Source: Clostridia bacterium
GTDB taxonomy: Bacteria > Bacillota > Clostridia > TANB77 > CAG-508
Direction of reading: 5' to 3'
NCBI GenBank assembly: GCA_045602065.1
Contig: JAZSAX010000094.1
Coordinates: 1-51,341, forward strand
Length of the DNA stretch: 51,341 nucleotides
Positions within the stretch are counted from its first letter, which is position 1, and each line of letters begins with the position of its first letter. The notes under the pieces were generated by a model. That model ran no database searches, was not told where the DNA came from, and saw nothing but the letters and a program-made list of their open reading frames with translations. A program made the position numbers and the translations under genes. Positions 11,354-44,912 of the stretch are shown piece by piece.

Positions 11354-11527
11354 ATGGACTATAATGTTGGAGATATTATAAGAACTAAAAAGCCACATCC
11401 TTGTGGTAGCAAGTTATGGGAAATTACACGTGTTGGTGTTGATTTCAAATTAAAGTGTCAAGGTTGTGGACATATTGTTGTTCTAGAAAGACCTAAAGCA
11501 CTAAAAATGATAACTAAAAAAATGTAA
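11354..11527 (+). CDS. DUF951-family small protein (57 aa, below the ORF-track cutoff)
   Basis: The product is MDYNVGDIIRTKKPHPCGSKLWEITRVGVDFKLKCQGCGHIVVLERPKALKMITKKM. RBS AAAGGAGG lies 5 nt upstream. The pattern matches my recollection of DUF951 (HPCG...C.GCG). Confidence 0.8.
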   Translation: MDYNVGDIIRTKKPHPCGSKLWEITRVGVDFKLKCQGCGHIVVLERPKALKMITKKM

Positions 11528-11577
11528 AATAGGGGAGGGTCCTTTTTTTCGCGAAAAAAAGGACCGTCCCTATTTTT
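11527..11577. repeat. Inverted pair of the GGACCGTCCC / A7 / CGCG repeat unit forming a >20-bp hairpin (dispersed family, copy B); acts as a terminator
   Basis: AAAATAGGGGAGGGTCCTTTTTTT-CGCG-AAAAAAAGGACCGTCCCTATTTT uses the same unit as 3957-4008 and 32589-32643, but here in head-to-head orientation. Confidence 0.8.
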
Positions 11578-11580
11578 ACA

Positions 11581-11620
11581 ATGTAACAAAAAAGTAATGG
11601 AAATGTAATAAAAATGTAAT
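11581..11620 (+). promoter_or_regulatory. Four direct heptamer repeats (ATGTAAC, AAGTAAT, ATGTAAT, ATGTAAT) with exact 11-bp phasing
   Basis: Repeat starts are at 11581, 11592, 11603 and 11614. The array is upstream of the Big_2 surface protein gene (ATG 11739). The same array type is at 19739-19756 and 41580-41619. Confidence 0.6.
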
Positions 11621-11738
11621 AAAGCACCAATACGCTGAAAACAGACACATAGACCGATTAGTGAAATAAAAAGAGGTTGTCTTTGAAATAAAAAAATGTT
11701 ATTCTAAAATAGGAAATATTGTAAAAAGGAGAAGAAAA

Positions 11739-13367
11739 ATGAAACTAAATAATAACAAAAAAATATTTATTATAACATTAATGGCAATACTTTTTATAAT
11801 TATATTTAATGTGAAAGTATATGCAGAAAATGAGCCATTTACATTATCTGCAGAGAGTAAAGAAGTACGCTTAAATGGTACAACTTACCTTTACTATACT
11901 GGAGGCGATTATAGTGAAAAAGTAACATGGTCAAGTAGTGATGAGAGTGTAGCAACTGTAGATGGTGGAAAAATAACAGGTCTAAAAATAGGAACAACTA
12001 CAATAACAGCTACTAGAGGAAATGAAACTGATTCTTGTGAAGTTAACGTAGTATATTCATTGATTCAAATTGGTGGAAATTCGAGCAATAATATAACTTC
12101 AGTAAATTTAGTATTAAATGAACATGATACTGAAAATTTATATGCAACAGTAGAAGATGATGATTACGTAGAAGTTCAAAACGCAGAAGTAAAATGGGAG
12201 AGCAGTAATCCAAGCATAGTTACAGTTAATGAAAATACAGGAACTATTACAGCGGTTAGTGCAGGAACAGCTACAATAACTGCATCAGCAGCAGGTGTAT
12301 CTGACACTTGTAATGTAACAGTTGTAAATGGACCAAAATTCACAGACTTTTCTAATGCAAAATATGAATTACTTTATGACTTTGAGGTAGATTTGAAAAT
12401 TGCAGATGTTAATCCAAATGATGAAAATAGTTACTACTATATAATAACTTCTAGTAATACAAAGCCAGAAATATCAACAACTTCATACGGAGCACTTGAT
12501 ACAGAGAAGGTAACAGATGCTACTTACTTAAGTGTTAATATAGAGGACAATTATATATATGCAAGAAATTTAGATAGATATGCAGAACTAAATCAAGATT
12601 TATATTTATGGGTAATTGAAGATATTAGATTAGAGGCTTCATATGCTAAAGATGAAGAAAATAATATTTCACATTCTACAAAATTTGTAGTAGAAGGAGA
12701 AAAATTAACAAGGCCAGAATTGCCACAATTAAACTTAATATTACAGACAATTAACATTGGACACTGGGCAAATGATACAACTGGTGAAAATTCTAATTAT
12801 ACTTATATAAATTTTAATTTTCCAACAGAACAGGAAAATAGAAAGTTTACATTAAAAATAGGTAAAGTTACAGATATTAATATATTAACAAAAATTCAAA
12901 ACAATGATTATTCTGGAATAACAGAACTATTGTCTTATGCAAAAAATAATGAAGCAGTGTTTTCAAAAACATTAACAACAACAAGTGCAGCATATTTTAG
13001 AAGTGATGATACTTTATTTGACGGAAATGCCTTGTTAGAAGATGATGCATATTATTTTATTTATGCACAATTTGATGATGAAAATGGTAAATATTATCCA
13101 ATAGAAGGTGTTACTTTAGGACAAGCTTGGAAATCAAATAGTGATTCAAACTGGTGGGACTTATGGGCTTATACTTCAGATAACTTTGATTGGAATAACT
13201 TAAAACCATCTAATACTCCTACCGAGCCAAAACCTGAAGATCCAACAGTAGCACCATCAGTAATACCAAATGCGGGAAATAAAACTGTAATTGCTATGGT
13301 AGCATTTGTTGCAATAGTTAGTGTAATACTATATAAAAAATACAACAAATTTAGTGATATAAAATAA
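11739..13367 (+). CDS. Secreted/surface protein with two N-terminal Big_2 (bacterial Ig-like group 2) domains and a C-terminal IPNAG-TM-YKKY anchor module
   Basis: It has a signal peptide (MKLNNNKKIFIITLMAILFIIIFNVKVYA) and Big_2 signatures (VTWSSSDESVATVDGGKITGLKIGTTTITAT; VKWESSNPSIVTVNENTGTITAVSAGTATITA). The C-terminal 34 aa are IPNAG, a hydrophobic stretch, then YKKYNKFSDIK. Confidence 0.85.
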   Translation: MKLNNNKKIFIITLMAILFIIIFNVKVYAENEPFTLSAESKEVRLNGTTYLYYTGGDYSEKVTWSSSDESVATVDGGKITGLKIGTTTITATRGNETDSCEVNVVYSLIQIGGNSSNNITSVNLVLNEHDTENLYATVEDDDYVEVQNAEVKWESSNPSIVTVNENTGTITAVSAGTATITASAAGVSDTCNVTVVNGPKFTDFSNAKYELLYDFEVDLKIADVNPNDENSYYYIITSSNTKPEISTTSYGALDTEKVTDATYLSVNIEDNYIYARNLDRYAELNQDLYLWVIEDIRLEASYAKDEENNISHSTKFVVEGEKLTRPELPQLNLILQTINIGHWANDTTGENSNYTYINFNFPTEQENRKFTLKIGKVTDINILTKIQNNDYSGITELLSYAKNNEAVFSKTLTTTSAAYFRSDDTLFDGNALLEDDAYYFIYAQFDDENGKYYPIEGVTLGQAWKSNSDSNWWDLWAYTSDNFDWNNLKPSNTPTEPKPEDPTVAPSVIPNAGNKTVIAMVAFVAIVSVILYKKYNKFSDIK

Positions 13368-13382
13368 TAAAAAATGAGGAAT

Positions 13383-13982
13383 TTATTCCTCATTTTTTTT
13401 GTTAATGTATTGTTCAATTATTTCCCAGACATCATCACTATAAACTTTTCTTTCAGAAGAGAAAGGGAGAGTAGGAATATCTCCAATAGGATTTAACTGT
13501 TTTTGAATGTTTTTACAAGTTTCATCAACTTTAGTTTTTGCAATTTTGTCAGCCTTATTAGTTAGAATGATACAAGGTAAACCACTTCTAATAACATAAT
13601 CATACATTAAGAAATCATTTGAAGTAGGGTCATGTCTAATATCAACTAAAAAGATGATAAGACAAATTTCTTTTCTGTGAGCTAAGTAATGTTCGATAAA
13701 TTCACCAACTTTAACTTGTTCTTGTTTAGACATCTTACTATATCCATAACCAGGTAAATCTACAAAATAAAATAAGTTATCCATATTATAAAAATTAAGT
13801 TGACGAGTTTTACCAGGTTCACTGCTTGTACGAGCTAATTTTTTTCTATTAATCATTGTATTAACAAAACTTGATTTTCCAACATTAGATTTTCCAACTA
13901 AAACAACTTCTGGTAAACCATTTTTGGGATATTGATTTTCTCTAACAGCTGAAACTTCAAATTGTGGATTTTTTATTATCAT
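13383..13982 (-). CDS. engB: Ribosome biogenesis GTPase EngB/YsxC
   Basis: G motifs are present (GKSNVGKSS, DLPGYG, TNKADK). The start is set at MIIKNPQFE, where AAAGGA lies 9 nt upstream. The track's start at 14000 abuts the terminator. Confidence 0.9.
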   Translation of the reverse strand: MIIKNPQFEVSAVRENQYPKNGLPEVVLVGKSNVGKSSFVNTMINRKKLARTSSEPGKTRQLNFYNMDNLFYFVDLPGYGYSKMSKQEQVKVGEFIEHYLAHRKEICLIIFLVDIRHDPTSNDFLMYDYVIRSGLPCIILTNKADKIAKTKVDETCKNIQKQLNPIGDIPTLPFSSERKVYSDDVWEIIEQYINKKNEE

Positions 13983-41579: not shown

Positions 41580-41619
41580 AAGTAATTAAAATGTAATATA
41601 AATGTAACTGAATTGTAAT
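41580..41619 (+). promoter_or_regulatory. Four direct heptamers (AAGTAAT, ATGTAAT, ATGTAAC, TTGTAAT) with exact 11-bp phasing, abutting an extended -10
   Basis: Repeat starts are at 41580, 41591, 41602 and 41613. The last repeat ends 10 nt upstream of the TATTAT hexamer (41630-35) within TGgTATTAT (41627-35). No separate -35 is present. Confidence 0.65.
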
Positions 41620-41684: not shown

Positions 41685-44600
41685 ATGAAAAAGTTTTTGA
41701 AAAAACAAATTGTAATAATAGCATTAATAATGTTTTTTATTTTGCCGATAATTACTATCGCAAATAGTGAAACATATTTAGAATTAGTGCCTAAAAAATC
41801 AGCTTCATATGAACAATGGGAGAAATTAGACAAAGAGGAAAAAAACACAATAATTCCACCAACATATATTGATATAAATTTTAAAGATAGCATAAAAAGA
41901 TCAAAATATAATCAATATATACTAAAAAGTGAAGAGGAAGGAACTTCTTCATACAATTTAAAAACGGAATTGGCTAAAAGTAATATAGGTATATATGTAA
42001 AAAATCAACAACAAACAGGATCTTGTTGGGCATTCTCGTTTTCAAATATGATAGAGACAACAATTGCAAATAAATTTAAAAGAACAGTAAAAGAATATTC
42101 TCCAATGCATATAGATTATATGGCAGGGGCGTTATATAATAGAATAGTAGGTGATGGAGGAAACTATTTAATGGCATTAGCTTACGGGACATCTGGTTTG
42201 GGACCTGTATATGAAGAGGATTTTTCTTTTGAGAGTGTTTATGATGAAGTCGAAAATAGTTCACAACCATATTTCTTAACTAATATTAGTAATGTGCAAT
42301 TAGATAAAGAAGCAAAAGCTAGAATAAAAGATGCAACTATATTTGCGCCAATATATAAAAGTTATTCAACAAATTCTATAACATATAAAGATAGTAGTGC
42401 GTGGATAGGATATAATGAATATGAACCAGAAGAAGTTCAAGCGCTAAGACTACTGGTAAAAGAACATATAAAAGAAAACGGAGCAATTACAGCTATGATG
42501 TATACAAATAGTGGCAATATAACAAGTATGTACAATAGTACTACAAAAGCATTTTTTAATAATAGTAGTTTTTCTAATCCGGATCATGCTGTAACAATAG
42601 TAGGATGGGATGATACTTTCCCAAAAGAGAATTTTTTGGAAGGCAAAAGACCTATAAATGATGGTGCATATATAGTACTAAATTCTTGGGGAGAAGAATT
42701 TGGAGATTCAGGGTATTTCTATATATCTTATGATGATGCTGTTATAGAGCAAGATTTATGTGGAATTGTTGATATATCTGAAAAAGAAGATGAAGAAGAC
42801 TCTTATGACAATATATACGCATATGATGAATTGGGTGCAAATTACTCGGTGTATGTAATAAATGATGAGGGAACCCAATATTTAGATAGCGGATATGCTG
42901 CAAGTGTTTTTTCAAGAGAATCTAAACAATCAACTGAATATTTATCAGAAATTGGAATATTCTTATTTAGTGCACATGGAATAGAAATATACGTAAATCC
43001 TAATGATGGTAAATTAGAAGATTGTGAATTGGTTGCTACATTTACAGCTACACAAGCATTAGAAGGTGGATACCATTCATTAAAATTATCATCTCCGATA
43101 CAATTAACTGGTGACAATTTTGCAATTAAAATAAAATATATAAACTCAACAAGAACAGAAATACCGCTAGAATATAATGGTTATGCTAGTGGTTCGGCTG
43201 AGGAGGATGATCCTTATGCTACAGCAACAGCATCTCCAAATGAAAGTTTCATTTCTTTTAATGGCACAGTATGGTCTGACTTAGATGACTATAGTAAAAC
43301 GTATTATGCGGGAACTAGTGACGAGACAACTATTGTATTAAAAGATACAAGTGCATGTATCAAAGCCTTTACAACATTAAGTGAAGGAACAACAACGGTG
43401 CCAGTAACAGGAGTAACATTAGATAAAGAAACAGTAACAATAAAAGAAGAAGAAACAGAAACATTAGTAGCAACAGTAACGCCAGAAAATGCAACAAATC
43501 AAAATATAACATGGTCAAGTAATAATCAAAGTGTAGCAACAGTAGCAAATGGAGTAGTAACAGGAGTATCAGAAGGAACAGCAACAATAACAGTAACAAC
43601 ACAAGATGGAAACTTTACAGATACATGTGTTGTAACAGTAGAAGAAAAAGTTGTAACACCACCAACAGTAGCAGTAACAGGGGTGACATTAAATAAAGAA
43701 ACAGTAACAATAAAAGAAGAAGGAACAACAACATTAGTAGCAACAGTAATGCCAGAAAACGCAACAAATCAAAATGTAACATGGTCAAGTAGTGATAATA
43801 CAATAGCAACAGTAGAAAATGGCGTAGTAACAGGAGTATCAGCAGGAACAGCAACAATAACAGTAACAACACAAGATGGAAGCTTTACAGATACATGTGT
43901 TGTAACAGTAGAAGAAAAAGTTGCAACACCAACAACAGTAGCAGTAACAGGAGTAACACTAAATAAAGAAACAGTAACAATAAAAGAAGAAGAAACAACA
44001 ACACTAGTAGCAACAGTAACGCCAGAAAATGCAACAAACCAAAATGTAACATGGTCAAGTAGTGCTGAAAGTGTAGCAACAGTAGCAAATGGAGTAGTAA
44101 CAGGAGTATCAGAAGGAACAGCAACAATAACAGTAACAACACAAGATGGAAACTTTACAGATACATGTGTTGTAACAGTAGAAGAAAAAGTTGTAACACC
44201 AACAACAGTGCCAGTAACAGGAGTAACATTAGATAAAGAAACAGTAACAGTAAAAGAAGAAGAAACAGAAACATTAGTAGCAACAGTAATGCCAGAAAAT
44301 GCAACAAACAAAAATATAACATGGTCAAGTAATAATGAAAGTGTAGCAACAGTGGCAAATGGAGTAGTAACAGGATTATCAGCAGGAACAGCAACAATAA
44401 CAGTAACAACACAAGATGGAAGTTTCACAGATACATGTGTTGTGACAGTAGAAGAAGCAGTTTTATCAGTAAAAGTAACAGGAATTGAACTTGATAAAAC
44501 AGAATTAAAAATGCAAGTTAGTGAAAAAACAAATTTAGTGGCAACAATAAAGCCAACAAATGCAACAAATAAAGAGGTAGTATGGACAAGTTCAAATACA

Positions 44601-44912
44601 GATGTTGCTACAATATCAGAAAATGGTATAATAGAAGCATTAAAAACAGGGAAAACAACCATAACAGTAACAACAAAAGATGGAAATTATAAAGCAACTT
44701 GTAAAATAACTGTTTCAGAAAAAACAAACAATGATGATGATATTTATGCAGAAAAAGAACCAGGAAAAATTGAAGAAGGTAAAGATACAACAATCATTGA
44801 TGGAAATATTCCAAATGCAGGATTACAAACTCTTATGATGGTATTAATTATAGTTGCAATAATAGTATTTGTAACATATAAAAAGTATAAAACATTTGAA
44901 GATATAAAATAA
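41685..44912 (+). CDS. Secreted papain-family (C1) cysteine peptidase fused to five Big_2 repeats and a C-terminal IPNAG-TM-YKKY anchor module
   Basis: It has a signal peptide. Catalytic motifs are QQQTGSCWAFS (Cys), DHAVTIVGWDD (His) and NSWGEEFGDSGYFYISY (Asn). Five Big_2 units follow (VTGVTL.KETVT...ATNQNVTWSS...ATV.NGVVTGVS.GTATITVTT). The C-terminal 34 aa are IPNAG, a hydrophobic stretch, then YKKYKTFEDIK. Confidence 0.88.
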   Translation: MKKFLKKQIVIIALIMFFILPIITIANSETYLELVPKKSASYEQWEKLDKEEKNTIIPPTYIDINFKDSIKRSKYNQYILKSEEEGTSSYNLKTELAKSNIGIYVKNQQQTGSCWAFSFSNMIETTIANKFKRTVKEYSPMHIDYMAGALYNRIVGDGGNYLMALAYGTSGLGPVYEEDFSFESVYDEVENSSQPYFLTNISNVQLDKEAKARIKDATIFAPIYKSYSTNSITYKDSSAWIGYNEYEPEEVQALRLLVKEHIKENGAITAMMYTNSGNITSMYNSTTKAFFNNSSFSNPDHAVTIVGWDDTFPKENFLEGKRPINDGAYIVLNSWGEEFGDSGYFYISYDDAVIEQDLCGIVDISEKEDEEDSYDNIYAYDELGANYSVYVINDEGTQYLDSGYAASVFSRESKQSTEYLSEIGIFLFSAHGIEIYVNPNDGKLEDCELVATFTATQALEGGYHSLKLSSPIQLTGDNFAIKIKYINSTRTEIPLEYNGYASGSAEEDDPYATATASPNESFISFNGTVWSDLDDYSKTYYAGTSDETTIVLKDTSACIKAFTTLSEGTTTVPVTGVTLDKETVTIKEEETETLVATVTPENATNQNITWSSNNQSVATVANGVVTGVSEGTATITVTTQDGNFTDTCVVTVEEKVVTPPTVAVTGVTLNKETVTIKEEGTTTLVATVMPENATNQNVTWSSSDNTIATVENGVVTGVSAGTATITVTTQDGSFTDTCVVTVEEKVATPTTVAVTGVTLNKETVTIKEEETTTLVATVTPENATNQNVTWSSSAESVATVANGVVTGVSEGTATITVTTQDGNFTDTCVVTVEEKVVTPTTVPVTGVTLDKETVTVKEEETETLVATVMPENATNKNITWSSNNESVATVANGVVTGLSAGTATITVTTQDGSFTDTCVVTVEEAVLSVKVTGIELDKTELKMQVSEKTNLVATIKPTNATNKEVVWTSSNTDVATISENGIIEALKTGKTTITVTTKDGNYKATCKITVSEKTNNDDDIYAEKEPGKIEEGKDTTIIDGNIPNAGLQTLMMVLIIVAIIVFVTYKKYKTFEDIK
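43398..44477 (+). repeat. Four in-frame tandem 270-nt (90-aa) near-identical Big_2 repeat units; a fifth diverged unit follows to about 44720
   Basis: GTGCCAGTAACAGGAGTAACATTAGATAAAGAAACAGTAACA occurs at 43398 and again at 44208, which is 3 x 270 nt apart. The units start at 43398, 43668, 43938 and 44208. Confidence 0.9.

Follow-up and report, generated by a model that had tools for sequence, protein, structure and literature searches.

The four phased repeats at positions 11581-11620 of the window, by which the whole analyzed stretch of 51,341 nucleotides is meant, are probably a tandem site for the WalR/YycF-type response regulator of the OmpR family that is encoded in the same genome, as judged from sequence. 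The half-sites ATGTAAC (11581-11587), AAGTAAT (11592-11598), ATGTAAT (11603-11609) and ATGTAAT (11614-11620) start 4 nt past a hairpin at 11527-11577 and are found 119-158 nt upstream of the ATG at 11739; the copy number, the 11-nt period, the position next to the hairpin and a distance of about 120 to 160 nt had all been reported in an earlier note on this DNA, and re-reading of the sequence gave the same layout. From the end of the array to the ATG, the distance is 118 nt. The locus is composed of the following elements:

11527-11577, strand not given: palindromic hairpin, the terminator of the DUF951 gene and member of a dispersed repeat family (from folding)
11581-11620, plus strand: array of four half-sites, (A/T)(T/A)GTAAY, with an exact 11-nt period (from the sequence)
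11582-11598, plus strand: upstream dimer site, TGTAAC-AAAAA-AGTAAT
11604-11620, plus strand: downstream dimer site, TGTAAT-AAAAA-TGTAAT
11677-11710, plus strand: predicted sigma-A core promoter (consensus match only)
11728-11731, plus strand: GGAG ribosome-binding site, 7 nt before the ATG (from the sequence)
11739-13367, plus strand: gene for a secreted protein of 542 amino acids (from domain searches and tail comparison)
13371-13400, plus strand: hairpin with T-run, the terminator of the 11739 gene (from sequence and synteny)

The consensus of the WalR/YycF box of B. subtilis, which has also been used for C. difficile, is given as TGTWAH-N5-TGTWAH in PMC9210968, and ChIP-seq of S. aureus WalR yielded TGTHH-N6-WGTNDD (PMC10746227). 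The downstream pair at 11604-11620 is an exact direct repeat of the strict hexamer, TGTWAH-N5-TGTWAH, whereas the upstream pair at 11582-11598 has one mismatch to it in its second hexamer, AGTAAT, and fits the S. aureus consensus. The array can be read as two adjacent WalR-type dimer sites, which are arranged in helical register and consist of head-to-tail half-sites. Hexamer, direct repeats and 11-bp period are all the same as in the WalR boxes of other Bacillota, among which promoters with two sites also occur, for instance, those of isaA and ssaA in S. aureus and of cd630_27680 in C. difficile. In contrast to the single dimers of WalR boxes, the arrays here usually consist of three or four half-sites that follow each other in phase and without a gap in the series. 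Most likely, the array represents one more case of a type of control site that is already known; taken by itself it is a modest finding, since both the motif and the regulator family are well described.

Two related sites are found in the same window:

19740-19756, plus strand: TGTAAT-ATAAA-TGTAAT, 21 nt upstream of TTGACT-18-TATACT, the promoter-like sequence of a gene for a GH73-SH3b-dockerin autolysin
41580-41619, plus strand: four-copy array overlapping the -35 position of the promoter of the C1-peptidase/Big_2 gene at 41685

The GC content of the genome is 28.7%, and short AT-rich repeats are common in such DNA, which would favor the idea that the four copies are a low-complexity repeat produced by chance or slippage and have no function; the nearest orthologues of the 11739 gene, which are not preceded by an array, point in the same direction. 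However, TGTAAY-N5-TGTAAY occurs four times in the window (once in the 11581 array, twice in the 41580 array and once as the two-copy site at 19740) compared to 0.09 expected occurrences, and none of 100 shuffles reached four. In the complete 1.31-Mb assembly, 20 matches were counted at period 11 and between 0 and 12 at other periods; among all periods from 6 to 24, chains of four copies were found exclusively at period 11, where there are four of them. Furthermore, non-coding DNA, which makes up roughly 11% of the genome, harbors 25 of the 28 best-scoring dimers, while single TGTAAT hexamers are not enriched in the non-coding DNA of the genome, indicating that the phased arrangement is what selection acts on. 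By these counts, the four repeats are genuine regulatory DNA beyond chance; a chance or slippage origin is already strongly disfavored by the statistics, and we consider it highly improbable.

The same picture emerges from comparison with relatives, in which arrays are conserved across the genus and control patterns are absent. A triple array, TGTAAY-N5-TGTAAY-N5-TGTAAY, is present in 40 of 41 genomes of the genus with 1 to 12 copies each, and the reversed pattern used as control was found in none of the 41. Among 150 other genomes of the class, 19 contain the triple array, again with a count of zero for the reversed control. Arrays are also found in front of orthologous genes, namely veg in four genomes, nrdD and a conserved coiled-coil protein in three each, and spoVAC and a small conserved protein in two each. 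Together with the counts for genus and class, this identifies the motif as a conserved cis-element with an unusually high abundance in the genus. A position weight matrix built from the relatives is dominated by the way in which the sites were ascertained, with the core fixed: by construction, all 90 training half-sites contain TGTAAY (complement RTTACA), and the only further information in the matrix is that an A is preferred behind the hexamer (flank consensus W-TGTAAY-A). The four-copy array associated with veg (G000:C112:9374-9412) overlaps with the stop codon of the preceding gene; its position, around 100 nt ahead of a veg promoter that is close to consensus, is conserved in four species (orthologous loci L024, L029 and L041).

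Which protein might bind the array can be narrowed down, because the assembly of approximately 1.3 Mb, estimated to be 95.9% complete, encodes only two OmpR-family regulators. For the first one (G000:C89:493-1242, hereafter the C89 regulator), the best NCBIfam match is resp_reg_YycF with 314.7 bits, a score below the equivalog cut-off of 340, followed by MtrA with 240 bits. Among PDB entries, its DNA-binding domain is best matched by B. subtilis YycF (2d1v), E. faecalis VicR (2hwv) and S. aureus WalR (2zxj). Its recognition helix, GDIRTVDVTVRRIRERIE, is almost identical to that of these solved structures, GDVRTVDVTVRRLREKIE, with the stretch RTVDVTVRR being identical, and a single copy of the regulator with 67-91% identity is found in 37 of 40 genomes of the genus. 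The genome thus appears to encode a WalR orthologue, the recognition helix of which is of the WalR type, and it has this feature in common with the systems of known WalR boxes. The gene itself is an orphan located beside sigE, spoIIGA, ftsZ and ftsA.

No kinase gene was found downstream of the C89 regulator gene, which, unlike in WalR systems, lies outside any walRK(HIJ) operon. Its partner is likely a WalK/PhoR-like PAS kinase (G000:C74:1471-2652) of 393 amino acids with one transmembrane helix, whose gene belongs to the dcw cluster for cell wall synthesis and overlaps with the end of murG; this kinase scores 334.5 bits against WalK and 335.6 bits against PnpS, both below the respective cut-offs, and the other kinase reaches 186. 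A short kinase with one transmembrane helix that is encoded within the dcw cluster would likewise set the system apart from WalR systems described so far.

The second OmpR-family regulator (C55:7297-7995, hereafter the C55 regulator) is encoded next to a kinase gene and could bind the array in place of the WalR-like protein, in which case the repeats would be a site of the Pho-box type or of another OmpR-family member. Four direct repeats with an 11-bp period are the classic core of PhoP promoters in B. subtilis, in which the half-site is TT(A/T/C)ACA and occurs four times at this period, while E. coli PhoB recognizes CTGTCAT-N4-CTGTCAT. The architecture of the array fits this well, and its half-site differs in a single base from E. 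coli CTGTCAT as well as from the complement of B. subtilis TTAACA; with PhoP and PhoB half-sites within one base, sequence alone cannot separate the paralogous regulators. In addition, PhoB is the best NCBIfam match of the C55 regulator (207 bits), and this protein is as conserved in the genus as the C89 regulator, so that the distribution does not separate the two either. As at PhoP and PhoB promoters, the sister array at 41580 replaces the -35 element. However, the score of 207 bits is far below the PhoB cut-off of 296, and the recognition helix of the C55 regulator, SRTIDSHIKKIRHKL, differs from that of the C89 regulator and resembles no regulator with known TGTAAY specificity, whereas the C89 helix matches that of WalR proteins with established TGTWAH specificity; the matching recognition helix in this genome is hence of the WalR type and not of the PhoP type. 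The array neither lies in front of a phosphate gene nor contains a TTAACA/TTTACA or CTGTCAT half-site, and the orientation of the repeats on the coding strand is opposite to that at PhoP-activated promoters. None of about 16 array-bearing genes here is phosphate-related, nor are those in relatives; PhoU was not found in the assembly (estimated completeness 95.9%), and the only PstS-like gene has neither an intergenic region nor an array and is located outside any pst operon. Based on the regulon content and the absence of PhoU, the Pho reading was rejected, and binding by the C55 regulator is regarded as improbable.

The genes that follow strict sites are in part those expected for a WalR-type regulator. 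In the window, these are the 11739 Big_2 gene, the 41685 C1-peptidase/Big_2 gene and the GH73-SH3b-dockerin gene; elsewhere in the genome, strict sites precede veg, spoVAC, the gene for an HD-GYP response regulator, dnaA, sepF, ftsA, where the site lies between sbp (DUF1290) and ftsA, and several genes for membrane or secreted proteins of unknown function. The earlier note had put forward the idea of a regulon, which gains support from the presence of the phased motif before the genes at 41685 and 19830, before about a dozen more genes and throughout the genus; the motif itself is not new, as it corresponds to the WalR/YycF box. Autolysins and dnaA are under the direct control of WalR in S. 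aureus, and the mixture of autolysin, surface protein, division and replication genes observed here seems to resemble published WalR regulons. Like WalR boxes, the arrays are intergenic and lie ahead of the promoters of some genes for the envelope, for division and for replication, namely those for the autolysin, the surface proteins, FtsA and DnaA. A similar mixture of cell wall hydrolases, division genes and dnaA is regulated by MtrA of Actinobacteria, the second-best NCBIfam match of the C89 regulator and an essential regulator related to WalR; MtrA boxes, however, have a different half-site sequence and belong to another phylum.

The agreement with WalR regulons is incomplete. Among genes for the cell wall and cell division, sites precede ftsA, sepF and the genes of the GH73 autolysin and of two sortase-type surface proteins, but none was found for seven M23 peptidase genes and one Amidase_3 gene; among the peptidoglycan hydrolase genes, only the GH73 gene has one. 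An NlpC/P60 gene or domain was not found in the assembly, which is estimated to be 95.9% complete. The regulon therefore bears only a weak resemblance to the classic WalR regulon, which is rich in autolysins: unlike in WalR regulons, most peptidoglycan hydrolase genes have no site here, and veg, nrdD and spoVAC are conserved targets.

Another DNA-binding protein, such as Spo0A or an uncharacterized global regulator, might recognize the repeats, or they might be phased, intrinsically bent, AT-rich DNA that resembles an UP element and works without a dedicated regulator. Indeed, the targets spoVAC, dnaA and ftsA are also linked to the control of sporulation, the spacers are A/T tracts in helical phase, and many arrays lie farther upstream than would be expected of a simple activator of class I or class II. 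Spo0A is present in the genome; however, its canonical box TGTCGAA is a separate motif that is itself enriched in non-coding DNA (37% intergenic), and the array is devoid of this 7-mer. The Spo0A reading was rejected because of the separate presence and enrichment of the canonical 0A box. Curvature is difficult to reconcile with a TGTAAY core that is invariant while the spacers vary, and the reversed pattern, which has an identical composition, never occurs; both observations argue for base-specific recognition and not for curvature alone. Furthermore, the arrays occur in both orientations relative to their genes, which speaks against this group of explanations and agrees with WalR boxes, which are orientation-independent. 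Taken together, another binder or bent DNA is given little credence compared to the WalR-type regulator.

A reading of the repeats as elements of an alternative sigma promoter was also rejected. Three of the copies mimic TTGTAA-17-TGTAAT and could be mistaken for the promoter of an alternative sigma factor; A at position 2 of the -10 element is essential, and the repeats have a G there. The -35 element of the ECF factor sigma-X is TGTAAC, and no CGAC or CGTC -10 element follows the repeats.

With regard to the actual promoter, TTGTCT (11677-82), followed after 17 nt by TG-t-TATTCT (11697-11705), had been put forward in the earlier note; it is present and was also the best match of our own scorer. 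A promoter scan additionally returned TTGAAA-16-TAAAAT (11683-11710), which overlaps it, and depending on the candidate, 56-62 nt separate the end of the array from the -35 element. The note had also described this geometry as distal, in contrast to that of the 41580 site. The distance is not exceptional, since the 118 nt between array and ATG are in the middle of the range of about 50-160 nt covered by arrays of the genus, most of which are located 10-85 nt upstream of an evident -35 element (TTGACA/TATAAT promoter). A helical phasing between array and promoter was not detected across 26 promoters, which are consensus matches only (Rayleigh p = 0.2-0.95). Many arrays are positioned around 100 nt upstream of the -10 element, which is far for direct contact with RNA polymerase and distinguishes them from WalR boxes.

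In S. aureus, WalR sites located upstream of the -35 element are associated with activation, and their orientation is irrelevant. By analogy, the position of the array upstream of the -35 element would predict activation of the 11739 gene. In the proposed mechanism, the phosphorylated C89 regulator would bind cooperatively to the array, 56 nt upstream of the -35 element, and would most likely raise transcription of the gene for the sortase-anchored Big_2 protein; expression of this protein would thereby be tied to envelope growth and division, together with that of the GH73 autolysin, the second surface protein, ftsA, sepF, dnaA and veg. We infer from sequence comparison both that the C89 protein binds the array and that activation is the sign of the regulation. 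The array provides a testable regulatory assignment for an uncharacterized surface protein in an uncultured, gut-type lineage of Clostridia, and with it comes a clean and conserved collection of candidate WalR sites from a genome that encodes no more than two regulators of the OmpR family. Provided that the binding is confirmed, the genus would be a compact model of an essential WalR system that links envelope, division and replication genes. One may speculate, tentatively and with considerable doubt, that in this genus of uncultured Clostridia with small genomes the WalR-type regulator has become a general regulator of growth and division, which uses long phased arrays, each with three to five half-sites and located far upstream (about -100 to -140), as platforms for cooperative oligomerization at veg, nrdD, dnaA, ftsA, sepF and spoVAC, and that such arrays travel with accessory surface protein genes as self-contained cassettes of hairpin, array, promoter and gene, for example, 11527-13400.

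In the closest relatives, G003 and G004, engB directly follows the DUF951 gene, which marks the stretch of hairpin, array, promoter, gene and terminator (approximately 11527-13400) as an accessory segment; the terminator at 13371-13400 is the end of the segment absent from these relatives. The block thus seems to behave as an accessory cassette. The hairpin at 11527-11577 folds with -32.5 kcal/mol (z = -7.3), and G003 and G004 each contain more than 10 similar copies of its family. Orthologues of the 11739 gene with 40-59% identity are present in about 15 of 300 genomes of the genus. Of about 11 that were examined, three are preceded by arrays (those of G076, G161 and G126), and no array was found before the orthologues of G114 and G023, the two best matches, or those of G293, G190, G127 and G082. 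Some of the orthologues without an array are located behind another gene with almost no spacer. Membership of the 11739 gene in the regulon is therefore patchy. The earlier note had suggested a check for relatives that keep the gene and not the array, which gave a mixed outcome: the closest relatives lack gene and array together, and arrays are present before 3 of about 11 of the distant orthologues.

The protein encoded at 11739 consists of a signal peptide, two Big_2 domains, around 300 amino acids without a family match and a tail with IPNAG, a transmembrane helix and KKY. A C-terminal anchor shared with the 41685 protein, as pointed out before in the earlier note, was recovered in the form of this IPNAG-TM-KKY tail with 44% identity over 43 amino acids (E = 1e-7). 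Tails in which [IL]PxAG is followed by a transmembrane helix and a basic end are encoded at 13263-13364 and 44808-44909 of the window and on contigs C50, C69 and C88 of G000; the variants are IPNAG (twice), IPHAG, IPDAG and LPKAG. The [IL]PxAG tail looks like the organism's own variant of the LPXTG sortase signal, and the genome contains six sortase-family genes. Based on the IPNAG, transmembrane and KKY ends, the related tails elsewhere and these sortase-family genes, the two Big_2 proteins are probably anchored to the cell wall. The 19830-21590 product (586 amino acids) comprises a GH73 N-acetylglucosaminidase domain, for which PDB entries 5wqw and 6fxo match with E-values of around 1e-15 and the Pfam match is below threshold, an SH3b domain and a type I dockerin domain. 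An autolysin-type enzyme that carries a cellulosome-style dockerin is an unusual combination.
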